This document shows, piece after piece, positions 30,185 to 42,450 of a stretch of 42,450 bases of DNA. Source of the stretch: Trichormus sp. ATA11-4-KO1 (GTDB lineage: Bacteria; Cyanobacteriota; Cyanobacteriia; Cyanobacteriales; Nostocaceae). The notes under the pieces were generated by a model. The model was not told the origin of the DNA. It was given only the letters and a program-made list of their open reading frames with translations, and ran no database searches. Made by a program: the position numbers and the translations under genes. The stretch spans positions 1 to 42,450 of the forward strand of contig JAHHIM010000039.1 of the NCBI GenBank assembly GCA_019358915.1. The letters run 5' to 3'. Position 1 is the first letter of the stretch, and the number at the start of each line of letters is the position of its first letter.

Positions 30185-30559
30185 ATGGATGATGACGAGG
30201 ATATTGTAGAAATTCCTTTACGACCTCTGGTTTGGATGGGAGACTCTCTCAAAAATATCCGCTCATTTCCTGAAGAGGTGCGTGCATCAGTAGGCTATGC
30301 TCTCCAATTGGTGCAAGCAGGGGAAACACCAATGGATGCCAAACCTTTTAAAGGGGTTGGAAGCGGCGTGTATGAAATCGTCAAACGCTACGATACCGAT
30401 ACTTACAGGGCTGTTTATGCAGTAAAGATTGGAGAAAAAATCTATGTCCTGCACGCTTTTCAAAAGAAATCAAAGCAGGGAATTAAAACTCCACAGGCTG
30501 ATGTTGACCTGATTAAACAACGCTATAAGGATGCGGTAGCAAGGGAGAAACAACAATGA
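30185..30559 (+). CDS. RelE/HigB-like (Gp49-type) toxin
   Basis: KPFKGVGSGVYEI, YRAVY, YVLHAFQKKSK.GIKTP; toxin-first gene order. Confidence 0.88.
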   Translation: MDDDEDIVEIPLRPLVWMGDSLKNIRSFPEEVRASVGYALQLVQAGETPMDAKPFKGVGSGVYEIVKRYDTDTYRAVYAVKIGEKIYVLHAFQKKSKQGIKTPQADVDLIKQRYKDAVAREKQQ

Positions 30560-30882
30560 CACAAGAATCGGTTTTTGAAGAAAGCAGTGGCAATGTATTC
30601 GCTGACCTCGGTTTGTCGGATGCTTCGGAACTTTTTACGCGGGGCAAAATAGGGATTCAGGTATTGCGCCTTTTGAAACAACGCAACCTGAAACAGCGTG
30701 AAATCAGTGAACTTCTAGGCATTCCGCAGCCAGAAGTATCTCATTTGATGAAAGGAGAGTTTCAACGGTTCAGCGAGGGCAAACTCCTCATTTTCCTCAA
30801 GCGACTCGATACGGAAATTACCTTGCATCTTCGCTCTCGTCACGCGCAGGGTGAATCTGCTGAAACTGTGATATCGCTATAG
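30556..30882 (+). CDS. HigA-like XRE HTH antitoxin
   Basis: SSGNVFADLG, LKQREISELLGIPQPEVSHL; ATGA overlap with the toxin. Confidence 0.88.
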   Translation: MTQESVFEESSGNVFADLGLSDASELFTRGKIGIQVLRLLKQRNLKQREISELLGIPQPEVSHLMKGEFQRFSEGKLLIFLKRLDTEITLHLRSRHAQGESAETVISL

Positions 30883-30890
30883 GGGGTAAA

Positions 30891-31095
30891 GTTAGGTCGA
30901 GGGGGAGTATGATCTCCCGCCCCTCCCAATTAGAACCGGACGTACCCGTTTTGGCTTTACTCTCAAGCCGTACCTTTCGCCATTGCAGGAAAAATTGCTG
31001 GCTGATAAGGATTTCCATCGTTAAGAAACATTTCGCCAACGGTATCGTTATCTCGGCGGATTTTGGGTTCTAAGCTAAAACGAGACTGCCCCCTT
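30891..31095 (-). mobile_element. Internally deleted group II intron remnant (3' half of domain V plus domain VI)
   Basis: Minus strand ...GTACGTCCGGTTCTAATTGGGAGGGGCGGGAGATCATACTCCCCCTCGACCTAAC ends in AC at 30891. The 5' boundary is uncertain. Confidence 0.6.
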
Positions 31096-31128
31096 AATAA
31101 CTCAACAGGCTCATGACAGCAGTTCCAT

Positions 31129-32601
31129 TCATTTATACCCTAATTCTTCAGCTTGCGTCGTATTAGTTACCCAATCTACACGCTTAGATAATTTATTTAA
31201 AACTACTGTTTGATAATTCCCATCATAGTTAAGCATTTTTAAATTAATACGAATTAAAATATCGTGAAGATGCTTAAAAAATCTAACTACATCTTCAAAG
31301 TCATATTGGCTATCAAAGTTAAAGTAACCTTCGTGAATTATAGCCCCTCTGTAATAAGATAAAACTCCAGCAAATTTTTGACTATCTGGGCGCGGATTTC
31401 TCTGATAATAGTCGTTGATGATAGTAGCATCTTGTAATTGAAACTCAAGATGATTGAGTAGGTCAACAACTGCTAATCCAAAATGCTTTTCTTTGTTTGT
31501 GGCGTTTTGTATTCTATCTTTAATTCGATTAAGTATATCGCTTTCGTTTGCTAATGCAGTACTGGTAATACTTTGTATTTGTGTAACAGCATGATTAATA
31601 ATTCTGTTCAATTGAGTCTTTTGAGAATTATTTAAACCACTGTCTAAAATTTGAGTATTAACCTGATATTTTGTACATAAGCTTTCTAATTCTCGAATTA
31701 ATAAATCTTTTCTATTTGATAAAAACTGTTTTGGATTTCCTGCCTGAATAGTCAACTCTAAACTAACACGTAAATATGATTGTCCAAAATGAGACGAAGA
31801 TAGAGATTTTTCAAGTAATTTTCCAATTCCACTATTCAGATCCGAGTCATGACCTTTGATAGCAACATGACCTTTAATATAAGGACAAGGATGTATATTA
31901 TAGTGAATTCGTTTCACAAGTTTACAATTTTCATCTCTAAATTCAATCCAAGGTGCTTGTACTTCTGTTCCCGTAGCTAATCCTAAAACATATAATAAAT
32001 CAAAGGGAAAATTTTCTTCTATATCATCAGTAGCAATAGACATAGAGCCTACTTCACCAACCATAATTGATGTAATAGTACAATGCTCTTGTTCTGAGTC
32101 TAATTTTCTTCTTATGTCTTCATAATTAGGTAAAGGTTCTATCCAGCTTTCTTTGTTTTTATATTTGAAGTTGATTAAACGATGAGGATAAAATTTATTT
32201 ACTTCTATTTCTAAAATTTCTTCTTGAATAAACTCTGTTACCAAGTTAGTCAAAGGTATTATCCAATATTTAGGCGTTAGTTGTTCATGTGTTTCTACCT
32301 CAAATTTATCAGTTGATATAGTGAGATTAATTCCTTGATTGAATATTATATCACGGGGTAATAATCGAATATTTGAATTAATACATATATCTTCTGAGAG
32401 AGTTTTAAAGTTAATATTCTGAATTTTTTGATTAGTATCATAATTGTGTAAATTTATTTCAATATTAAATTTGCCAGATTGTTCAAAATTTATCTGGCAA
32501 CAAGTATCACCCTCTGAAGAATCACTGAAATTAACTTTACCATTACCTTGATAATAAAAATAAGGTTGAAATGATTGACATATTGGTGAATTAATAATCA
32601 T
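31129..32601 (-). CDS. AT-rich protein with C-terminal HEPN-like RxxxxH motif (ApeA-like candidate defence nuclease)
   Basis: 490 aa; helical C-terminus with YRGAIIHEG and an upstream ELE; visibly AT-rich. Confidence 0.6.
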   Translation of the reverse strand: MIINSPICQSFQPYFYYQGNGKVNFSDSSEGDTCCQINFEQSGKFNIEINLHNYDTNQKIQNINFKTLSEDICINSNIRLLPRDIIFNQGINLTISTDKFEVETHEQLTPKYWIIPLTNLVTEFIQEEILEIEVNKFYPHRLINFKYKNKESWIEPLPNYEDIRRKLDSEQEHCTITSIMVGEVGSMSIATDDIEENFPFDLLYVLGLATGTEVQAPWIEFRDENCKLVKRIHYNIHPCPYIKGHVAIKGHDSDLNSGIGKLLEKSLSSSHFGQSYLRVSLELTIQAGNPKQFLSNRKDLLIRELESLCTKYQVNTQILDSGLNNSQKTQLNRIINHAVTQIQSITSTALANESDILNRIKDRIQNATNKEKHFGLAVVDLLNHLEFQLQDATIINDYYQRNPRPDSQKFAGVLSYYRGAIIHEGYFNFDSQYDFEDVVRFFKHLHDILIRINLKMLNYDGNYQTVVLNKLSKRVDWVTNTTQAEELGYK

Positions 32602-33140: not shown

Positions 33141-33797
33141 ATGCCTGTAGGACTGCCTGAGTTCGTGGAAAACCCAGAAAATCGTTGCCCAGTGATTCTC
33201 TTACTCGATACCTCTGGCTCTATGTCAGGTCAGCCTATCCAGGATTTGAATCGAGGACTGGCAACTTTCAAAGAAGATGTACTTAAAGATACTCAGGCAT
33301 CCTTGAGTGTAGAAGTGGCTATTGTCACATTTGGACCTGTACGGCTAATTCAAGACTTTGTGACGATTGACCAATTCACACCACCAAAACTGGAGGCAGA
33401 CGGTGTTACTCCCATAGGTGAAGCGATTGAGTACGCTTTGGATTTGTTGGAAAACCGTAAAGCTACTTATAAAAGTAATGGTATTTTATATTATCGTCCT
33501 TGGGTATTTTTTATTACCGATGGAGCGCCCACTGATTATTGGCAAAGTGCAGCACAAAGAGTTAGAGAGGCAGAAGAAAGCCGTAGATTGTGTTTTTTTA
33601 GTGTCGGTGTGCAGGGTGCTGATATGAACAAACTCAAGCAAATTGCTCCCCCTGAACGTCCGCCAGTATCACTAAATGGTTTAGATTTTCGCTCATTATT
33701 TATTTGGCTTTCTACTTCAATGAAACGAGTTTCTAGTGGCAAAGTTGGGGAAGCTGTAGCACTACCTCCTGTGGGATGGGGTCAAATTACTAGCTAA
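33141..33797 (+). CDS. TerY-like vWA protein
   Basis: LLLDTSGSM MIDAS, T, ITDGAPTD, YYRPW; strong RBS GGAG. Confidence 0.9.
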   Translation: MPVGLPEFVENPENRCPVILLLDTSGSMSGQPIQDLNRGLATFKEDVLKDTQASLSVEVAIVTFGPVRLIQDFVTIDQFTPPKLEADGVTPIGEAIEYALDLLENRKATYKSNGILYYRPWVFFITDGAPTDYWQSAAQRVREAEESRRLCFFSVGVQGADMNKLKQIAPPERPPVSLNGLDFRSLFIWLSTSMKRVSSGKVGEAVALPPVGWGQITS

Positions 33798-33813: not shown

Positions 33814-34584
33814 GTGGGTTGGAAAGCAGTTGTGCATTCTGCTATAGGAACGAGTCATCAAAAGCAGGAAATACCTTGCCAAGATAGGGGAGATTATCGC
33901 ATCTTTAATGATGTGATTGTGGGTGCTGTTGCTGATGGTGCTGGCAGTGCTAAATATTCTGATGTTGGTGCGAAATTAGCGGTAGACACCATACTCAAGT
34001 GCTTTGCTGACATTAACGAATCTCTAGAGCAACGCATTTCGCAACCACTTTCTCAAGAAGAAATTAAGAAACTGTTTGAGAAGATTGTAAAAATAGTTAT
34101 TACAAATTTGCATGATCAAGCAAACAGCCAAGGTTATTCAGTTGATGAATTAGCTTGTACACTCTTAGTTTTTGTAGCGACACCTGACTGGCTTGCAGCT
34201 ATGCAAATTGGGGATGGATTTATTGTGGTGCGTCTTCAAGACTTAGATTATCAACTGTTGTTTCAACCAGATAAAGGTGAGTTTGCTAATGAAACAACTT
34301 TTATTACTTCAAACAATGCACTAGAGGAAATGAAAGTAGACATTATTTCAGGAGCGCAAGAATTTATTTCTGCTTCAACTGATGGATTGGAAAAAGTAGC
34401 AATTCGCATGAGTGATTGGCAACCGTTTCCGCCATTCTTTCAACCGTTTGAAGAATACTTACAGGAAACAGCTCATCCAGAGCAAGAAAATGAGTATCTA
34501 ATGAGTTTTCTTAACTCTGAACGACTAAATGCTCGTACGGATGATGATAAAACTTTACTTTTATGCCTTTTTAATAAAGACTAA
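33814..34584 (+). CDS. PP2C-family phosphatase (TerY-P triad)
   Basis: GTSH..PCQD, VADGAGSA, IGDG, TDG, TDDDKT. Confidence 0.9.
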   Translation: MGWKAVVHSAIGTSHQKQEIPCQDRGDYRIFNDVIVGAVADGAGSAKYSDVGAKLAVDTILKCFADINESLEQRISQPLSQEEIKKLFEKIVKIVITNLHDQANSQGYSVDELACTLLVFVATPDWLAAMQIGDGFIVVRLQDLDYQLLFQPDKGEFANETTFITSNNALEEMKVDIISGAQEFISASTDGLEKVAIRMSDWQPFPPFFQPFEEYLQETAHPEQENEYLMSFLNSERLNARTDDDKTLLLCLFNKD

Positions 34585-34590
34585 AATCCA

Positions 34591-37290
34591 ATGACAATTC
34601 TCATTTGTGGTAGCACGAGTGAATCGATTACTCTTTTGGGTGAACCAATAGAAAGCGGTGAAGCGAAAGTTTGGCGAACTAATCACAATGGATATTTAGC
34701 AAAAATTTATCACTCCCCAACTCCTGAGCGTGTACAGAAGTTAGCAGTGATGATATCCCACCGACCCACAGAGCCAAATTCTCACCTTAATCATATTTCT
34801 TTTGCATGGCCTCAGTCGTCGCTGAGAAATGCTCAAGGTGATTGTGTGGGGTTTTTAATGCCAGAGATTAAGGGTGCAAAAGAACTTCTTGATGTGTATA
34901 ACCCGCAGCGTCGTAAAAAGCTCAAACTTGAGATTGATTGGCGTTTTCTACATACAACGGCGTTAAATATTGCCTCAATTATTGAAGCAATTCACGCTTC
35001 TGGTTATGTGTTAGGTGATATCAAACCACAGAATATTTTAGTCAATAATCGCGCTTTACCTTCAATCATTGATACAGATTCTTTTCAAGTGCGTCATCTG
35101 CAAAATGGTAAGGTATATCGTTGTCTGGTAGGTTCACCGGGCTTTACGCCATCGGAACTGATTAACAAAGATTTGTCAACTATAGATCAAACAGAAGTAC
35201 ACGATCATTTCCGGTTAGCAGTCATTATTTATCACCTATTGTTTGGTGGTGAAAGTCCTTTCCAGGGTCAGTGGATAGGTGCGGGGGATTCTCCAGAAAT
35301 CAACGAATTAATCCGTCGTGGGGTCTGGCTTTATGCACCAAACAGTTTAATTCAACCAATCAGCAGGACTATTCCTTTTGAGATTGTTCATCCAGAGGTT
35401 CAACGTTGTTTTTTACAATGTTTTAATGATGGGCATAAAAATGTTAACTTCCGACCAAGTGCTAGGGATTGGGTTAAGGCGTTGAAACTTGCTGTTAATG
35501 ATTTAACTATCTGTGGCAAGGTAGATAGTCATTATTACAGCCGAAACTTTGGTAAATGCTATTGGTGCGATCGCGCTAATAATCTTGGTGCGGATATCTT
35601 TCCTGGAAAATCAACTACTACACAGCAACAAACTGTAGCACCAACAAAAACTCCCAAAATACAACACATTACCTTAGTCAATACGCTTTTAGCACATTCC
35701 GCCAAGATTACTTGCTTAACCTACAGTCCAGATGGTAAAACCCTCGCCAGTGGCAGTTATGACAATACTATTAAACTGTGGGATGTAGCTACTGGAATGC
35801 AAATCTGCACCCTCCAAAGTATTTCTGCCAGAATTAATGACCTAACCTACAGCCCAGATGGTAAAACCATTGCTAGTGGGTGTAATGACAGTACTATCAA
35901 AATGTGGGATGTAGTTACTGGCAGGGAAATCCACTCTCTTAAGGGGCATTCCGCCAGGGTTCTTTGCGTAGCTTACAGTCCAGATGGCAAAACTCTCGCT
36001 AGTGGGAGTAAAGATAGCACTATTAAACTGTGGGATGTAGCTACTGGAAGAAAAATCCACATTTTACAGGGACATGCCACCAGGGTTAATACTTTAGCTT
36101 ACAGCCCAAATGGTAAAGTTCTTGCCAGTGGAGGTGATGACAACACCATCAAACTGTGGGATGTAATCACCAAAGCGCAAATCTGCACCCTCCAAGGACA
36201 TTCTGCCAAAATTTTTTCTTTAGCTTATAGTCCAGATGGCAAAACACTCGCCAGTGGGAGTGGGACACAGGACAAGACCATCAAACTGTGGGATGTGGCT
36301 AATAGAAGAGAAATCCATACTCTCAAAGGGCATTCTAGCAATGTTATTTCTGTAGTCTACAGCCCAGATGGTAAAACCCTTGCTAGTGGAAGTGATGACA
36401 ATACTATCAAACTGTGGGATGTAGTCACTGGAACGCAAATCTACTCGCTTCACGGACATTCTAGTTCGTTTAATGACTTAATTTACAACCCAGATGGTAA
36501 AACTATTGCTAGTGGAAGTAGTGACCATACTATCAAAATTTGGCAACTTACGTCATCGACTACTAAAGCTGCTTCATTACCAGTCAAACCAATTCAATCT
36601 CAAGTTCCTCAACTTAAACAAACGGCAAATTTACCTAGTCAAGTTTTATCAGCACCAGCATCATTTACTCAGCATAGTCAACCAAGCACTGTTCTCCACA
36701 GTATTTCTTCAGTTATCACTTCTGTTTATCCGAATAATTCAATAATTAATACAACTAAAAACACTACATTAAAACAATGGATTATTACAAAGCTAATTCA
36801 AAACCACGAACAACTTATTATCCTTGGTATTGTAGTAATAACAGTATTATTTGCATTTATTGCTCACATTATAAATGAATCAACTTCTGAATTAGATAAT
36901 ATTAATACTACTAGATATGAGACAAAGGAATTAACAGAATTAGAATTATGGAAAATAGCAAATAGTGATGTCAAAAACTATATAATAGGTCAAGAGCGAT
37001 CGCTTGCTAACCTCGATTCTGGATGGGTGATTCAAACCAACCAAGAAATTACCTTGAACAATCAAGACACCTTCCCCCCAGGCAGTTTTTGGCAAGTGAT
37101 TGAGACAAAACCCGATCCCCAACCTGCCACTGGGGATTTATTAGTGCATCTGCGCCTGTGTCCCAATCAAAATCCGCCCAACCCAACACTCAACCTTTCC
37201 CAAAAAGCAGCATGGATTCAACTCTCCCAACTGCAAAATCAAGTGAAGGTTCTACAAGCCAGCGATACCAGTCCATGTGATCTTCAGTAG
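34591..37290 (+). CDS. Ser/Thr kinase + Zn ribbon + 7 WD40 repeats + TM helix + C-terminal domain (TerY-P triad kinase)
   Basis: SGEAKV, AKIY, GDIKPQN, IDTDS, C...H...CYWC, seven YS/NPD/NGKTLASG..D.TIKLWD repeats, LIILGIVVITVLFAFIA. Confidence 0.9.
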   Translation: MTILICGSTSESITLLGEPIESGEAKVWRTNHNGYLAKIYHSPTPERVQKLAVMISHRPTEPNSHLNHISFAWPQSSLRNAQGDCVGFLMPEIKGAKELLDVYNPQRRKKLKLEIDWRFLHTTALNIASIIEAIHASGYVLGDIKPQNILVNNRALPSIIDTDSFQVRHLQNGKVYRCLVGSPGFTPSELINKDLSTIDQTEVHDHFRLAVIIYHLLFGGESPFQGQWIGAGDSPEINELIRRGVWLYAPNSLIQPISRTIPFEIVHPEVQRCFLQCFNDGHKNVNFRPSARDWVKALKLAVNDLTICGKVDSHYYSRNFGKCYWCDRANNLGADIFPGKSTTTQQQTVAPTKTPKIQHITLVNTLLAHSAKITCLTYSPDGKTLASGSYDNTIKLWDVATGMQICTLQSISARINDLTYSPDGKTIASGCNDSTIKMWDVVTGREIHSLKGHSARVLCVAYSPDGKTLASGSKDSTIKLWDVATGRKIHILQGHATRVNTLAYSPNGKVLASGGDDNTIKLWDVITKAQICTLQGHSAKIFSLAYSPDGKTLASGSGTQDKTIKLWDVANRREIHTLKGHSSNVISVVYSPDGKTLASGSDDNTIKLWDVVTGTQIYSLHGHSSSFNDLIYNPDGKTIASGSSDHTIKIWQLTSSTTKAASLPVKPIQSQVPQLKQTANLPSQVLSAPASFTQHSQPSTVLHSISSVITSVYPNNSIINTTKNTTLKQWIITKLIQNHEQLIILGIVVITVLFAFIAHIINESTSELDNINTTRYETKELTELELWKIANSDVKNYIIGQERSLANLDSGWVIQTNQEITLNNQDTFPPGSFWQVIETKPDPQPATGDLLVHLRLCPNQNPPNPTLNLSQKAAWIQLSQLQNQVKVLQASDTSPCDLQ
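35686..36549 (+). repeat. Seven ~126-bp coding tandem repeats (WD40)
   Basis: Recurring AGCCCAGATGGTAAAACC...AAACTGTGGGATGT. Confidence 0.9.
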
Positions 37291-37537
37291 TGCTTTTGTG
37301 AGTGCAACATCGCCAGAGATTGTATTTATCTTCTACACCTCTCTCTGCCCCCTGCACCCCATTGGCGGCAGCCTGCTTGCGGAAATTAATAAAAACCTGA
37401 AATAATACAGGTACAGTAATAACCAGATGAAACATTCACACGACAGACCTTTTACTAGAGGCAAATTATTATTGAAAATTAATTATTATGACCCTTTAGT
37501 TTAGTGAATCCATGCCATCCCTGAACTTGGCGATCGC
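36996..37537. other. 534-bp segment bounded by two HIP1 octamers in the same reading frame
   Basis: GCGATCGC at 36996-37003 and 37530-37537; offset 534 = 178 codons; the coding part is more GC-rich than the flanks. Confidence 0.7.
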
Positions 37538-38124
37538 CCGTCTCATCAATACTGATAATAGGTGTTGGTATTTTATATAAAATTGATGAAAAAAGTCAAA
37601 CACCTATAGTTACTAGCGTTGTTGACAAGTCATCAGCATTTTTAAACGGAATAAAAACTGGCGATAAAATATTATCTATTGATGGCAAATCTACATTAAA
37701 AATGAATGCTTTTGAAGTTTCTATTTTGTTTGAAGGCAAATCAGGTAATCCAATTAATTTGCAAATTTTTCGTTCAGAGCGCAATAAATTCAATCTAACA
37801 TTATTAAGAAAGAGGATGCAAAACCCCAATCTTTCTAAAGAATATTTAAAACTTTGTTTTGCCCATCTTCAATTGGAAGAATATGAAGAGGCACTTGAAA
37901 AGTGTAATAAAGCAGTTAAGATTGATATTTACAATGATGAAGCATACCTTCTAAGAGGTAATGCTCATCTAAATTTAGGAAATAAGACAGAAGGAATAGA
38001 AGACATTAAAAAAGCTGCAAACAAAGGAAACCCAATGGCTATAATTATACTCAAAGATATAGAACAAAAACCGCTTTTAAAAAAATTAAACATAAAAAAG
38101 AATTTTCTAGAGTACCCTGGATGA
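37538..38124 (+). pseudogene. Start-less PDZ + TPR coding segment; probable displaced C-terminus of the kinase gene
   Basis: The frame is open from 37525: IGVGILY...GIKTGDKILSIDGKS (PDZ), then TPR (EEALEKCNKAVKID..AYLLRGNA). The first ATG (37702) falls mid-PDZ. Confidence 0.7.
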
Positions 38125-38191: not shown

Positions 38192-39616
38192 TTATTCTTC
38201 AAAATTAATTGGTTTACCGTTGAAGTGCTGGTAAATGCGTTCAGGGTGCATCCAGTTTGGTAGTGTCCTTTCCTCGTCTTCTAAGTTATTCCCGTTCTCA
38301 TCAACTAGCCCATAACGGACAACGACCCTAGATAATGGCGTTTCCCCATTGGCGCTAAACTTCTCCAGTAAAATTGTCCCTGCCTTCCGTGAGGCGGCTG
38401 TACCGTCTGGGAAGCTTTCATTTGTGGCATTGTGGGTGATTCCTAGCAAATACTCCTTGGCTTTGCGGGTGTCAGTGAGGGACATTTTGAAGAAAGCGAT
38501 CGCACTCTCCCCGCACAATGATTTTAAATTGGTAAATTCATCCACAATTACCTGCTGCTTTTTGGTGGGTTTTTCCTTAATCCGAGTTAACCACCGTTCA
38601 CAACAATCTTCAAAAGCTGTGCTGATTTCATCCTCTGATTCTGCTTTGCTGGTGGCTTCTAGTAATTGCCATACATCGGCGTTGTCACCTGTGGCGTGAC
38701 GGTCGATTAATTGATGAATTGGGGCATCAAGGCAGTATTTTCTAATGAGGGCGATCGCTGTGGCTGTATAAGTCTTACCTGACCCTTGATTACCAATCAA
38801 CCACAATGGTTTGAGTGAATTGATAATTTTCCACAGATAACCATCCTCATGATTTTTCAGGGCATCTATGAGGGCATCTTTCAGCTGTTCGCTGGGGGAT
38901 TGGGTACTGGCCTTGTGGTCATCCTGGGGAGTGCTAGACAATTTGCTCAACTTCTTGTTAGTTTCAGCAACTTGTAGCTTATTGTCAGCAATAACCTTGT
39001 CCATCTCCGACAACTGCAACTCATGATTTTTGAGTGATAATTTACCCTGTAGTTGACCATTGATGTGGTCTAATTGCATCTCACCTGGGGATTTCATAGC
39101 CTCGATTGTTTCAGCAGTTTGACGGGCGATCGCTTGCTTGGTGATCTCAGATTGCTGTTGTTTACTAAACTGGGTTAGGTCAATGTGATTGCTAACAATA
39201 ATGTCGTTCTCCAATGCTTTGATTTTGAGCAATGCGAACTGACTATGAATTGCTTTCTCTTGTTTATCAGTGAGTGATTTACTGGTAGCATAAGCAACGA
39301 GCAACGCCACACTTCCACCAATCCCAAATAAGTAAGCGGTGCTATCTTCTGGTGGTAAAACTCGTAAGATTTTAATGCTGTTATCAAATAATTGATTACG
39401 GCGCTCATTATCAATAATGTGAGCAATTCCCCGCCGCACACTTGACCCTCTACAGTCAGAATTGACCCTACAGAATAAGACCTCACTATGCTTAATTGAA
39501 TCGGTAAATAATGGCACAGTTGCAGCTAGTCCACCAATTAACAATGCACCTACTAACAAAGTAGATGCTTTACGCTCACGCCTGAGATTTTCGTTAAATT
39601 CTTCTATCTCTTGCAT
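38192..39616 (-). CDS. Membrane-anchored coiled-coil P-loop ATPase (FtsK/HerA/coupling-protein-like)
   Basis: Two N-terminal hydrophobic helices, coiled coil, LWLIGNQGSGKT Walker A, VIVDEF Walker B, LLGITH. ATG 39616 preferred. Confidence 0.7.
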   Translation of the reverse strand: MQEIEEFNENLRRERKASTLLVGALLIGGLAATVPLFTDSIKHSEVLFCRVNSDCRGSSVRRGIAHIIDNERRNQLFDNSIKILRVLPPEDSTAYLFGIGGSVALLVAYATSKSLTDKQEKAIHSQFALLKIKALENDIIVSNHIDLTQFSKQQQSEITKQAIARQTAETIEAMKSPGEMQLDHINGQLQGKLSLKNHELQLSEMDKVIADNKLQVAETNKKLSKLSSTPQDDHKASTQSPSEQLKDALIDALKNHEDGYLWKIINSLKPLWLIGNQGSGKTYTATAIALIRKYCLDAPIHQLIDRHATGDNADVWQLLEATSKAESEDEISTAFEDCCERWLTRIKEKPTKKQQVIVDEFTNLKSLCGESAIAFFKMSLTDTRKAKEYLLGITHNATNESFPDGTAASRKAGTILLEKFSANGETPLSRVVVRYGLVDENGNNLEDEERTLPNWMHPERIYQHFNGKPINFEE

Positions 39617-39861
39617 TGTGCTTTTACCCAAAACAATAGATAAATGCCAGCAATTAAGTACAACCAATATCCTTGGATGAATAATCTGATTTTTGTAATT
39701 AAACTGTCTACTGTGCCGAGAGTATCAGGAGTAATTAACCAATTCACCAGTGCATCAATGTTAAAAACAAAATCTATAAACCCAGTGGCTAAATAGTTGA
39801 GCGTGACAATCGTAGCTAAGGAGCTAATTAAGATTCTCCAAATACTATTTATCCTGTACAT
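39604..39861 (-). CDS. Small two-TM membrane protein
   Basis: 85 aa, hydrophobic; overlaps both neighbours. Confidence 0.65.
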   Translation of the reverse strand: MYRINSIWRILISSLATIVTLNYLATGFIDFVFNIDALVNWLITPDTLGTVDSLITKIRLFIQGYWLYLIAGIYLLFWVKAQCKR

Positions 39862-40417
39862 TTGGATTACCCAGAGATTTTAAATAAATAACTACTGCCA
39901 TGAAAATTAGAGCAATCAATAGTGAGATGTTCATGCTGGGTAACTGCCAAGTTAATCCATTGTTAGCTCTAATTTCTTTGTAAGTTTCAGCAATTGCGTC
40001 ATGGGTAAGTATTACTTCTTTAGTAATTCTGCTAGTCCCTGAAAATGACACTGCACCACCAATTAATAATTTGGCAATTCCTATTAATGGCTTATCTCCA
40101 AAGCGTATTCGCCAGTTTTCACTAGATGCTTCAAAATTGAAACCATCTCCTATATGGATTAGTCCAGGTATTAAGGCTATGCAAGAACTAAATACCTGAA
40201 TAATCACTAATGTTACTCTCAATTCAAATAGTAGCCATGACAGGCTACACGACCCTACCTGACAAGTTAGAAAGAGTATACTACTATCAATTCTTTTTCT
40301 CGCTGTAATATCTTCATACAATCGATTTTCGATGTGTTGTAAGTACCTCAAAGTATCTTCGTTGGCGGAAGATTCTTGATTGTCTAGTAATTCTTCTAAC
40401 TGGTCATTAGGGTACAT
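39845..40417 (-). CDS. Multi-TM hypothetical membrane protein
   Basis: 190 aa with ~4 hydrophobic segments; in operon. Confidence 0.7.
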   Translation of the reverse strand: MYPNDQLEELLDNQESSANEDTLRYLQHIENRLYEDITARKRIDSSILFLTCQVGSCSLSWLLFELRVTLVIIQVFSSCIALIPGLIHIGDGFNFEASSENWRIRFGDKPLIGIAKLLIGGAVSFSGTSRITKEVILTHDAIAETYKEIRANNGLTWQLPSMNISLLIALIFMAVVIYLKSLGNPNVQDK

Positions 40418-40430
40418 GGGTTAAATTTGG

Positions 40431-40511
40431 GGAATGGAGAATGTAGATTGCAGATTGGAGATTGGGATTAAAAGCATTCAATCTACAATCTTCTTTCTGC
40501 AATCTGCAATC
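40431..40511. repeat. STRR-like heptamer repeats in inverted arrangement
   Basis: AGATTGC/AGATTGG runs followed by CAATCTA/CAATCTG runs. Confidence 0.6.
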
Positions 40512-40529
40512 GTTTTGGGGGGAGTGTTT

Positions 40530-41219
40530 TTAGAAGCCTAAAGCTGTACGCAATTGTAGTATTCTGGCTTTTAATCCTGGTGTCTGGTAATTTTTCTCAG
40601 GGATGAGGTCATAACGAGCGCGATCGCCTTTATTTAATCCCTCGTTTAATTCCCTCATTTCATGCGCTTCATCGGCTGCAATCTGTTTTATTTCTGGTCT
40701 ATGGGATTGTTCAAGTAATGAGGTTTGTTGGTCTATACCTGCTAAGTGAGCATCAAGATAACCTTTGATTTGGGTGTAGTTCATCTGGTATTGATGACGT
40801 TGGTTTTCACCCGTTTTAGATGCGATAAATTCAGCCGCTAGTTCACTTCGTTGGTGTCCATATTTGGAGTTGGCTAAAGTGGCTTGCATAACGGATTTAT
40901 CGATGGCGATCGCTGACTTGCCAGCTTGAACTAAAATATCCGCAGTGGCTTTGTTGTATGCTTCTGAACCGTTGATAATCTCGATGTAAGCTTGTGCAAG
41001 TTTGGGAGCTAATTCGGCTGATAATCGTCCTTGTCTTGCTAGTTCTCCAATTTTTTGAGCAGCTGCTACATCTCCATTCAATGCTGCATCAAAATCAGCC
41101 AAATTTACACCAAATTTAGGCTTTAAAACATTGCTAATTCTTCTGGCTTTGGGTGCAACATGGTTTTTTAATGTCGCTCTGGTGGTGGCAGTGGTTGTGT
41201 CAGTTATTTTCTTAGTCAT
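40530..41219 (-). CDS. Alanine-rich helical/coiled-coil hypothetical protein
   Basis: 229-aa ORF in operon. Confidence 0.75.
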   Translation of the reverse strand: MTKKITDTTTATTRATLKNHVAPKARRISNVLKPKFGVNLADFDAALNGDVAAAQKIGELARQGRLSAELAPKLAQAYIEIINGSEAYNKATADILVQAGKSAIAIDKSVMQATLANSKYGHQRSELAAEFIASKTGENQRHQYQMNYTQIKGYLDAHLAGIDQQTSLLEQSHRPEIKQIAADEAHEMRELNEGLNKGDRARYDLIPEKNYQTPGLKARILQLRTALGF

Positions 41220-41248
41220 AGGTTTGTTAGGTAGTTGTGGATATGTGC

Positions 41249-41458
41249 TTAACTGGTGAATCCTTCTAGGGCAAAAATATTCAGAGGTTCACCATGTTGA
41301 TTTAACAACTCTGACCGCAATTCGATTAATGCTTGCTGTGCATCCCCCAAAGTTACGTCTGGTTGATAATTCAAGGTTTTAAACTGGGGATGATTCCTGA
41401 TTTCTTGAATTGTTTCAAGAGACTGATTGACTAATTCTTGTATTGTTCTTGTTGCCAT
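41249..41458 (-). CDS. Small hypothetical protein
   Basis: 69 aa with GAGGTG RBS; overlaps the upstream ORF. Confidence 0.7.
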   Translation of the reverse strand: MATRTIQELVNQSLETIQEIRNHPQFKTLNYQPDVTLGDAQQALIELRSELLNQHGEPLNIFALEGFTS

Positions 41459-41676
41459 GATTGCACCTCATTTTTGAAATGATTTAAGCTGCCAAAGTTT
41501 TTGATAATTCCTCGCTCTATTTCGTCGTTGGATAGGGTTTCGATATCATCCAAACACTGGATATCTTCAAAATGCCCGATACACTCTATGAGCCATTCCC
41601 TTGCAGCTTTTAACACCTCGGCTTCGCTCGGTGTTAAAGCTGAGCGAAGTCGAAGCTTTAAGGTTTCTTCATCCAT
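41431..41676 (-). CDS. Small hypothetical protein
   Basis: 81 aa; overlapping operon arrangement. Confidence 0.6.
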   Translation of the reverse strand: MDEETLKLRLRSALTPSEAEVLKAAREWLIECIGHFEDIQCLDDIETLSNDEIERGIIKNFGSLNHFKNEVQSWQQEQYKN

Positions 41677-41879
41677 GCGGGAATCTCTAGATAAATATTA
41701 GAGTCGTGAAATTCTCGATACTCTAGCTGGTGGACTCGATGCCTGTTTAGTCGGTAATTATCAAAGGCTACAAGAGCCAGTACTAAAGATGAAATCAACA
41801 AAATGGTGTAACCTAATTTCTGAGGATTAACGGCAATTACAAAGTCTTTATCAGCCTGTTTTACTAGGTGGGAGTGCAA
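41658..41879 (-). CDS. Small single-TM protein
   Basis: 73 aa with LGYTILLISSLVLALVAF; overlaps both neighbours. Confidence 0.55.
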   Translation of the reverse strand: MHSHLVKQADKDFVIAVNPQKLGYTILLISSLVLALVAFDNYRLNRHRVHQLEYREFHDSNIYLEIPAWMKKP

Positions 41880-42328
41880 AGGCTTTGAGTGCTGTTCTGA
41901 CGCTACTTTTAAACTTCTGGGAACCTCTTTTGATGTCGTTGTTTATCTCCCGTAATCCATCATTCAATAGCTGGGAGTTTTCATTATCCAATCGCGTTAC
42001 AGTCTCCCTAACACCTTGCACCATGTTGGTTATCTTTTGCTTAGTAACCTGCGCTTTATGTTGTACAAATGCTGTAATTGCTGACTCGATTTCTGCTATC
42101 TCATAATCAGAATTAACACTTGCATAATCAAAGTTTTCAGCAATCGCTGTGACTTCCTCAATTGATAAAGTAATCCCCATATCATTTGCAGTGCTGGCGA
42201 CTAATTCTGATTTCTCTTGTAGTGCAATGGCTGTTTCTTCTGGTTCCTCATTATTGAATTGGGTTAATGTTTCCGCTTCCTTCTGTGTAGATGTTGCGTT
42301 TTTTCCGGTTTCATCAACTACACATATA
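41851..42328 (-). pseudogene. 3' part of the coiled-coil gene interrupted by the transposable element
   Basis: ICVVDETGKN...ALPPSKTG continues the 506-124 frame after removal of the element. Confidence 0.8.
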
Positions 42329-42450
42329 TGTTGCGGCTCGCAAACATAAACGCTCCGGCTTGCAAACAAGAAAATTGTTGGCTCACATTAATTGCAAACA
42401 GAAAAAGACTTCGGCTCACATTAATTGCAAACAGACTCATTATTATTTAC
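42329..42450. mobile_element. Other end of the TGT...ACA transposable element
   Basis: Starts TGTTGCGGCTCGCAAACA immediately after CATATA; inverted copy of 1-123; repeated GGCTCACATTAATTGCAAACA. Confidence 0.85.

Follow-up and report, generated by a model that had tools for sequence, protein, structure and literature searches.

How did a plasmid-borne TerY-P kinase gene of the cyanobacterium Trichormus sp. ATA11-4-KO1 come to end in a domain of a chromosomal phosphatase, and what part was played by the two HIP1 octamers near the ends of the foreign segment? The window, by which we mean the whole 42,450-nt stretch analysed (contig JAHHIM010000039.1), carries vWA, PP2C and Ser/Thr kinase genes in tandem, which identifies the locus as a TerY-P triad (Table 1). 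Pfam found Pkinase in the kinase core, WD40 in the kinase ORF, and PDZ and TPR in the downstream frame. Cys-Gly-x4-His and Cys-x2-Cys motifs lie at kinase residues 308-326, where no profile match names a zinc ribbon. At this locus PADLOC returned only generic kinase and WD40 matches, leaving the vWA and PP2C genes without a match, and a scan for promoters and terminators gave counts inside the shuffle range. The chimeric kinase fusion is a singleton among 5.8 billion clusters. We think it probable that the fusion arose by a one-off, illegitimate capture of a chromosomal fragment, a mishap of DNA repair and not a reversible switch.

Table 1. Features of the TerY-P locus and of the captured fragment (positions in the window)
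Feature	Position	Strand	Details
TerY-like vWA gene, first of the TerY-P triad	33141..33797	+	PF00092, E 3e-11
PP2C-like phosphatase gene of the triad	33814..34584	+	PF13672, E 6e-58
Chimeric kinase gene	34591..37290	+	899 aa: kinase, Cys/His zinc-ribbon-like motif, 7 WD40, linker, TM, captured domain
HIP1 in Cys-Asp-Arg codons	35567..35574		End of conserved kinase core; outside the insertion
WD40 region, seven-bladed	35671..36570	+	PF00400, 7 stretches; limits approximate
Predicted TM helix	36817..36873	+	aa 743-761; Kyte-Doolittle mean 2.98
9-bp target duplication, left copy	36982..36990	+	ATAATAGGT, codons I-I-G
Captured chromosomal fragment	36991..37554	+	564 bp, 44.7% GC; no transposase, no terminal inverted repeat
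Captured post-membrane C-terminal domain of chromosomal PP2C phosphatase	36991..37290	+	99 aa, with stop codon
Left HIP1, donor-derived	36996..37003		5 bp inside fragment end
Captured spacer between donor PP2C and CHAT-FHA genes	37291..37511		
Captured CHAT-FHA gene start	37512..37580	+	14 codons, then out of frame into plasmid DNA; 22-aa peptide
Right HIP1, donor-derived	37530..37537		17 bp inside fragment end
9-bp target duplication, right copy	37555..37563	+	
Orphaned PDZ-TPR tail of ancestral kinase	37555..38124	+	189 codons stop-free; no start before 37702

The junctions are marked by an exact 9-bp repeat that occurs in the window only twice, precisely at the two ends of the fragment. Among 20,000 random 564-bp contig intervals (2 bp slack), a 9-bp flanking repeat was found 5 times and an 8-bp repeat 15 times. 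The two halves of the kinase gene overlap by exactly Ile-Ile-Gly, in register with all six aligned homologues. Taking the fragment out at the 9-bp repeat recovers the PDZ junction of these six, giving a product of 986 aa, and their alignment has no space for 13 extra residues at the junction. TM-PDZ-TPR is contiguous in four homologues, and one (G157) has the same full architecture. As a preliminary description of this DNA had supposed, the PDZ-TPR part now has no proper start, the first in-frame ATG, GTG or TTG (at 37702) falling inside the PDZ domain. Sequence comparison thus supports an ancestral gene that would have encoded kinase-WD40-TM-PDZ-TPR and been interrupted by the fragment. One caveat here is that an empty allele of the plasmid was not found, so that the ancestral junction is read from homologues only ~40% identical there. 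The search for such an allele gave none among 1320 longer proteins taken as candidates at E<=1e-15 (weak evidence), one unrelated TPR match in genome contigs and, in a metagenome pattern scan, only two loci (L061 and L062), whose lengths equal those of the window's own contigs; among plasmid records, none spans 80% of the region. The same-genus genome G011 has a related plasmid backbone, without a match to the TerY-P triad of the window.

The fragment consists of the 3' end of a PP2C gene, a spacer and the first 14 codons of a CHAT-FHA gene, and lies in frame and in sense orientation in the kinase gene. It brings in a new post-membrane domain and a stop where homologues have contiguous PDZ-TPR, much as the preliminary description had proposed; its contrast of AT-rich flanks with a GC-richer coding insert was also borne out (30.3% GC at 36540-36995 and 29.5% at 37538-38124, versus 47.8% at 36996-37290; the remainder up to 37529, from 37291, has 39.7%). 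In the result, one post-membrane domain has been exchanged in frame for another, and the kinase sensor faces outside. The chimera probably preserves the topology of its ancestor, kinase inside and small domain outside, and may have been tolerated because of this. An SH3-like fold of the 99-aa captured domain is predicted with low confidence: the model has a pLDDT of 66, the best hit of a fold search (Z 6.1) is under the level separating relatives, and the ESM Atlas recognises the domain poorly, with a weak SH3b lead only. We also compared the fragment with insertion sequences and MITEs. By eye its ends share only the outer two bases; it has no transposase, and instead of being dispersed in several copies, the sequence occurs once on the plasmid and once at its native locus on the chromosome. 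The ends were considered as pseudo-ends of host elements and, again by eye, are unlike the element families found at contig ends.

As the preliminary description had suggested looking for, the segment is present on the host chromosome, between adjacent HIP1 sites. This host copy (C5:110169-110782) has 90.7% and 85.8% identity to the fragment, and that of G011 has 93% and 90%. In the coding part, the fragment differs from the host at 24/282 nt and from G011 at 20/285, while host and G011 differ at 8/282. Short soil-crust contigs are 97–100% identical to the fragment; at least four, from two soil-crust runs of one study, show 9 substitutions and 2 gap letters over 516 nt, although at depths of 2–6 single differences may be errors. 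Among the matches listed (22 of 45 pieces), three of these contigs run on into other sequence, leaving the window precisely at 36991 or 37554. Because these contigs match the fragment more closely than the host copy does and diverge from the window exactly at the two ends, the donor was the chromosome of a sister lineage and not that of the present host. The plasmid gene was broken open where its extracytoplasmic PDZ domain begins, the 9-bp target was duplicated, and a linear 564-bp piece of sister-lineage chromosome was sealed into the opened gene.

The presence of a close paralogue of the insert on the same genome's chromosome raises the concern that plasmid and chromosome were merely joined in assembly. 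We give this next to no chance. Insert and chromosomal paralogue differ by 9–14% and in length, and a precise target duplication is not a product of misassembly. Moreover, run X1, possibly the source sample, has a contig that spans the left junction without a difference and a second that begins 30 letters ahead of the right junction and runs across it.

The octamers themselves led the preliminary description to a different model, in which HIP1-by-HIP1 site-specific integration and excision of a 534-bp cassette switches the sensor domain. Its observations hold: the octamers at 36996 and 37530 are 534 bp apart and in the same phase, HIP1-to-HIP1 deletion in silico leaves an open frame of 3000 nt (999 aa) with one terminal stop, and the PDZ-TPR tail remains stop-free. 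HIP1-linked site-specific recombination and low-frequency excision are also on record, as relayed in PMC4390886. However, the octamers are not the boundaries. Donor homology starts at 36991, 5 bp before the left HIP1 (contig of run X3), and in the chromosomal comparison reaches 37554, 17 bp beyond the right one, so that the junctions lie outside the octamers, at the 9-bp target duplication; in the donor locus, both octamers coincide with conserved codons. None of seven PDZ-type homologues (only ~40% identical here) has HIP1 within 300 bp of the target site. The excision product would keep 13 non-ancestral residues (999 versus 986 aa), and the shared phase is the 1-in-3 coincidence that had been allowed for, since the bases left over (5+8+17+9) come to 39 bp. 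An exchange with the host copy is at odds with a donor other than the present host, the fusion is a singleton, and an 8-bp repeat gives slippage no advantage over a 9-bp one. The excision joint was not seen in run X1, where we had contigs only, which drop rare variants. As the origin of the fusion, the switch is already contradicted by these data, and we regard it as very improbable.

A further HIP1 site lies in the Cys-Asp-Arg codons of the kinase; of the 82 family kinases retaining WCDR, 55 have it. As a swap point for the family it is unproven, conservation continuing ~35 bp past the octamer.

Our preferred reading, a one-off capture, leaves the presence of HIP1 within 17 bp of both ends unexplained. 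One addition, compatible with it, is that HIP1 shaped the donor fragment, chromosomal DNA, whether imported or broken inside the cell, being trimmed back as far as a methylated HIP1 that halts or guides the nuclease; captured fragments should then carry HIP1 just inside their ends. Here the octamers lie 5 and 17 bp inside; a HIP1 no more than 17 bp from each end occurs in 2.5e-4 of random 300–1000-bp chromosomal fragments, a figure that is post hoc, because the case was singled out for its octamers in a very large scan. Methylated HIP1 increases transformation, and a Chi-like or uptake role has been proposed (10.1101/2024.09.10.611283; PMC13756078); on the other hand, the first of these sources also reports that the effect of HIP1 persisted in an addAB deletion of PCC 7002. 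The donor locus is dense in HIP1, with three sites within 110 bp. Because the two distances are unequal, a methyl-directed nuclease that cuts this palindrome at a fixed offset is rejected. None of three older captures in the kinase family has HIP1 at both ends: L138 and L164 lack internal HIP1, and L120 has one, 72 bp from its right end. Among 495 single-partner duplications in this genome (pairs counted twice), the only other HIP1-ended case is a pair of 68%-identical paralogues. On balance, we consider trimming at HIP1 unlikely.

How, then, was the capture made? Among the possible mechanisms, we give a 9-bp stagger made by an IS4/IS50-type transposase an even prospect. In the simplest route, an element would insert and later excise itself, leaving a gap between the two target copies, and Ku-independent end-joining would fill this gap with a chromosomal fragment, either while the plasmid resided in the sister lineage or after it took up DNA from that lineage. 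The kinase now ends in the PP2C post-membrane domain, and the PDZ-TPR tail is left without a usable start. A host element with 12 ends at contig breaks shows 9-bp duplications in each of the four pairs into which its ends could be matched, and plasmid records similar to its end carry the annotation IS4-family transposase. Against a transposase, the 9-bp target is AT-rich (2/9 GC), unlike the four paired IS targets, and G011 has only a single match to this IS end, with 2 mismatches. As both junctions lack an IS trace, we infer this step from the length of the repeat alone. For bacteria, both the capture of linear DNA at breaks and the joining of ends without Ku have been described (PMC6379672). 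Ku was found in none of 121 family genomes, a set that leaves the donor-lineage genome outside, and the control was positive in Bacillus subtilis. Alternative end-joining usually requires microhomology, and no exact microhomology is present at the right junction.

Template switching would require neither Ku nor an element, and no transposase would be involved. A strand, either nascent from the plasmid or a stray single strand, would have annealed at weak microhomologies, 564 nt of chromosome would have been copied, and synthesis would have resumed 9 nt back. Such an event would be similar to SPDIR, where the microhomologies are extended and contain gaps and mismatches (10.1101/2024.07.02.601687). 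By eye, the insert end and the plasmid before the target share 7 letters with one gap and one mismatch, but this right-side similarity is weak for DNA of 30% GC and does not line up with the junction. On the left, where the donor's outer flank was not recovered, the flanks of the host and G011 point to no more than 1 base of microhomology. The products described for SPDIR in that source are microindels and polymorphism clusters, not a loss-free 564-bp insertion with a clean duplication. Template switching seems to us unlikely.

Capture is not confined to this gene. Three of 87 other family kinases examined (L138, L164 and L120) also end in a domain from a chromosomal membrane-protein gene, which with the window's kinase makes 4/88. 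The three older tails are a TonB C-terminal domain (twice) and a conserved membrane-protein domain (once), and no flanking repeat of at least 7 bp was found at these captures. GUN4-like tails, which match many paralogues, were left out of the count, and the tails of L152 and L154 were tested and are not captures. In the genome itself, no second capture of the same kind was seen among 495 single-partner or 33 gene-cutting duplications; of the other repeat-flanked duplications, three pairs resemble small elements with inverted repeats, and one pair of 116 bp has no explanation. The literature covered, with few subscription papers and no supplements, reports neither such an event nor such kinase tails.

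The locus offers an unusually clean snapshot of domain shuffling, in which donor, both junctions, target duplication and displaced tail are all readable. Chromosomal DNA free of any element went in with a duplication of the size that a transposase makes, in a family whose genomes yielded no Ku, and the sensor tails of these kinases have repeatedly been drawn from host membrane proteins; accidents of this kind could be one route to their variability. The event is single; we infer the mechanism of capture, and the expression and function of the chimera are putative. Plant NLR proteins carry integrated decoy domains. By analogy, Nostocacean TerY-P kinases could be receptor-like defence sensors that recruit envelope-facing host domains, here a periplasmic PP2C domain, as integrated decoys; the window's kinase would be the freshest capture, its ends recording Ku-independent filling of transposase-made gaps with fragments trimmed to methylated HIP1. 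We consider this whole picture quite improbable; if it were true, HIP1 would leave a direct footprint in gene shuffling. The family raises two testable questions: are these kinases phage decoy sensors, and do the ends of captured fragments lie near HIP1?

Several known systems resemble parts of this event. HIP1-linked recombination (Akiyama 1998; Robinson 1997, both as cited in PMC4390886) shares octamers near both segment ends and a HIP1-rich cyanobacterium; here, however, the crossovers are outside the octamers, the target lacks HIP1 and a 9-bp non-HIP1 duplication marks the ends. IS4/IS50-type cut-and-paste elements make a 9-bp target duplication, the same length as that of the host IS4 element, whereas this insert has no transposase or inverted repeats, exists in one copy and is ordinary chromosomal DNA throughout. 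In capture by NHEJ or alternative end-joining, as outlined in PMC6379672, a linear unrelated fragment is likewise sealed into a break without homology; ours differs as a natural event that made an in-frame chimera, with Ku in 0/121 genomes and the target duplicated, not trimmed. SPDIR, as presented in 10.1101/2024.07.02.601687, also exchanges heterologous patches between chromosome and plasmid via two illegitimate joints, but this insert is far longer than a microindel, no target sequence was lost and the microhomologies are unconvincing. Finally, the locus agrees with the TerY-P triad (PMC10542128, citing Anantharaman 2012 and Gao 2020) in gene order and domains, with a candidate zinc-ribbon-like motif following the kinase. 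The kinase tails named in the available part of PMC10542128 are zinc-ribbon or OB-fold only. In contrast, Nostocaceae tails are hypervariable (WD40, TPR, PDZ, GUN4-like, TonB-C), frequently with a TM helix, and some were captured from host chromosomal genes.

The two HIP1 octamers (36996 and 37530), their 534-bp spacing, the open 999-aa join and the GC contrast are all as the preliminary description reported, and its proposal that the insert exchanges the post-membrane domain of the kinase holds up. However, the octamers are not the boundaries of the insert, as it had assumed. At the right, homology to the host, to G011 (a genome of the same genus) and to most relatives ends at 37554, 17 bp beyond the octamer. 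At the left, the match to record 21 of soil-crust sequencing run X3 starts at 36991, 5 bp ahead of the octamer, and these five bases are native in three relatives. Directly outside 36991 and 37554 lies an exact 9-bp direct repeat that occurs only twice in the window; the null rate for such a flanking repeat is 5 in 20,000. The insert comprises 564 bp plus a 9-bp duplication.

Searching family (Nostocaceae) genomes for homologues with contiguous TM-PDZ-TPR, as had been suggested, returned intact kinase-(spacer)-TM-PDZ-TPR genes in four, of which G157 alone has WD40 as in the window; a fifth gene is frameshifted, and two more end after the PDZ. When the window gene was aligned with six homologues (about 40% identical in the region compared), its two halves overlapped by exactly the duplicated I-I-G, in register. 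In silico, excising the insert at the 9-bp repeat leaves a product of 986 aa; cutting from HIP1 to HIP1 leaves one of 999 aa, in which 13 residues are extra. HIP1 lies within 300 bp of the target site in none of seven homologues. These data, with a crossover outside the octamers, argue against the HIP1 cassette switch originally proposed: HIP1 is not the crossover site. An empty allele of the plasmid itself was searched for and not found. The downstream frame indeed carries PDZ and TPR domains (Pfam), with no common start codon before 37702, as had been claimed; the captured CHAT-FHA start codon lies in a different frame from the PDZ and encodes 22 aa, so the PDZ-TPR tail is orphaned.

The inter-HIP1 segment has a counterpart in the host, on contig C5, flanked by adjacent HIP1 sites at a spacing of 587 bp (insert identity 90.7% over 289 nt and 85.8% over 246 nt). 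In this donor-type locus, the 3' end of a PP2C phosphatase gene is followed, after a spacer, by the beginning of a CHAT-FHA gene; the locus is widespread, with matches in 266 of 388 family genomes. Counted by eye, 28 of 29 aligned loci retain the right octamer; the left one is placeable in 25 loci (two placements doubtful), about 22 of which retain it. Given this conservation, both are ordinary codons of the donor genes. In its coding part the insert differs from the host at 24/282 nt and from G011 at 20/285, and these two differ from each other at only 8/282. As the insert is more distant from both than they are mutually, the present host is not the donor. Four low-depth contigs (two soil-crust runs, one study) differ from the insert by 9 substitutions and 2 gap letters in 516 nt, and one of them spans the region of host length difference, new stop codon included.

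The chimeric kinase has its TM at aa 743–761 and the captured domain from aa 801 onward, and the donor phosphatase carries that domain about 25 residues after a TM. One post-membrane domain has been replaced by another, with a 1 in 6 chance of correct frame and direction. Outside this gene, the captured domain is confined to the end of PP2C proteins; its fusion to a kinase is a singleton. A single-sequence model (pLDDT 66) looks SH3-like, although its best match, a Nostoc peptidase domain with Z 6.1, is not decisive.

The contig (C39), from a 5.97-Mb cyanobacterial assembly, is probably a plasmid, because it encodes a relaxase, ParA, ParB, a PriCT-2 protein and a type I restriction system (Pfam) and has few HIP1 sites (14, or 0.33 per kb, versus about 0.8–1.0 per kb on large contigs). 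Its vWA, PP2C and kinase genes make up a TerY-P triad, as defined in PMC10542128.

Features of the triad and its surroundings in the window
Feature	Coordinates	Remark
vWA gene of triad	33141-33797	
PP2C gene of triad	33814-34584	
Kinase gene of triad	34591-37290	899 aa
Stretch adjoining triad	30185-32601	Gp49-like + HTH gene pair (toxin-antitoxin-like); 490-aa ORF without any Pfam or PADLOC match
Repeated element	1-127 and 42324-42450	TG ends, tandem internal repeats

The repeated element, which looks Tn7-like, is common to 13 contig ends. Positions 38192-42249 are 86–90% identical to host contig C45, 66–70% to C51 and 85–93% to G011; the window contig, C45 and C51 appear to form a family of co-resident related plasmids. 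Another low-HIP1 host contig holds a 10,408-aa open frame (L199, C41 near 30271), and small elements that have inverted repeats and 8-bp target duplications lie at C58:1760-1953, C66:912-1106 and C65:283342-283454.

The kinase core has matches in 104 of 388 family genomes (E<=1e-120). We examined 87 kinases, taken from all but the weakest and a small number of the other matches; 81 have closed frames (322 to 1093 aa) and 52 of the 87 a strong TM-like stretch. Tails include WD40, TPR, PDZ, GUN4-like and TonB-C domains (24 Pfam-scanned, the others classed by BLAST). Since three further kinases (L164, L120 and L138) terminate in a domain of a chromosomal membrane-protein gene, recruitment of host domains after the TM is recurrent. 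The TonB-C tail of L164 (genome G043) is 87% identical in nucleotides to its own genome, and that of L120 (G176) 82% to a congener and 69% to its own; being only 69% identical to each other, they are probably two independent captures. In L138 (1119-1796), an apparent TPR start is interrupted by a domain of 110 aa that belongs to a conserved membrane protein of the chromosome; this domain is nearer to the copy in our host (81%) than to that of its own genome (72%). Hydrophobic-stretch scores for L164, L120 and L138 are 1.49, 2.10 and 1.77, two of them under the 1.8 cut. Two other odd tails tested as captures were not. A decoy-sensor reading of the tails is speculative. L109 (G155) has its kinase core in tandem duplicate in a single 1093-aa frame, and downstream of the kinase in L138, L094 and L107 (several genera) lie small RNase-like and inhibitor-like genes, barnase-barstar-like by eye.

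HIP1 might mark the donor ends. The chance of HIP1 within 17 bp of both fragment ends is 2.5e-4, for a case selected for its octamers, and methylated HIP1 influences uptake and recombination according to 10.1101/2024.09.10.611283, PMC13756078 and PMC4390886. The independent test, on the three other captures, was negative: none has HIP1 at both ends. None shows a flanking repeat of at least 7 bp either. These captures are older and their ends may have eroded; no recurrence of HIP1 bounding was seen among them. Separately, a HIP1 site in Cys-Asp-Arg codons (35567-35574), 35 bp ahead of a conserved-to-variable boundary, is present in 55 of 82 family kinases.

For 9 bp to be duplicated without any loss of target, the insertion must have involved either a staggered cut or a 9-nt step back. 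One host element, 12 ends of which lie at contig breaks, shows 9-bp duplications in 4/4 matchable end pairs; the plasmid sequences that match it carry IS4-family annotations. When IS4-type elements excise by cut-and-paste, the DNA is left broken between the two copies of the target; had one been excised here, the gap could have been filled by a linear chromosomal fragment, giving the observed structure. Against such filling, the insert site bears no IS trace, the 9-bp target is more AT-rich than the four paired IS targets, Ku was found in 0/121 genomes and the right joint lacks exact microhomology. The main rival is template switching or SPDIR, as presented in 10.1101/2024.07.02.601687, for which a weak out-of-register match is the sole support. 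The event itself is real and well resolved, an illegitimate DNA capture of a new variant and not a HIP1 cassette switch. Literature searches found no published description of such an event; for Sinorhizobium, PMC6379672 documents both the capture of DNA at breaks and joining that does not depend on Ku.
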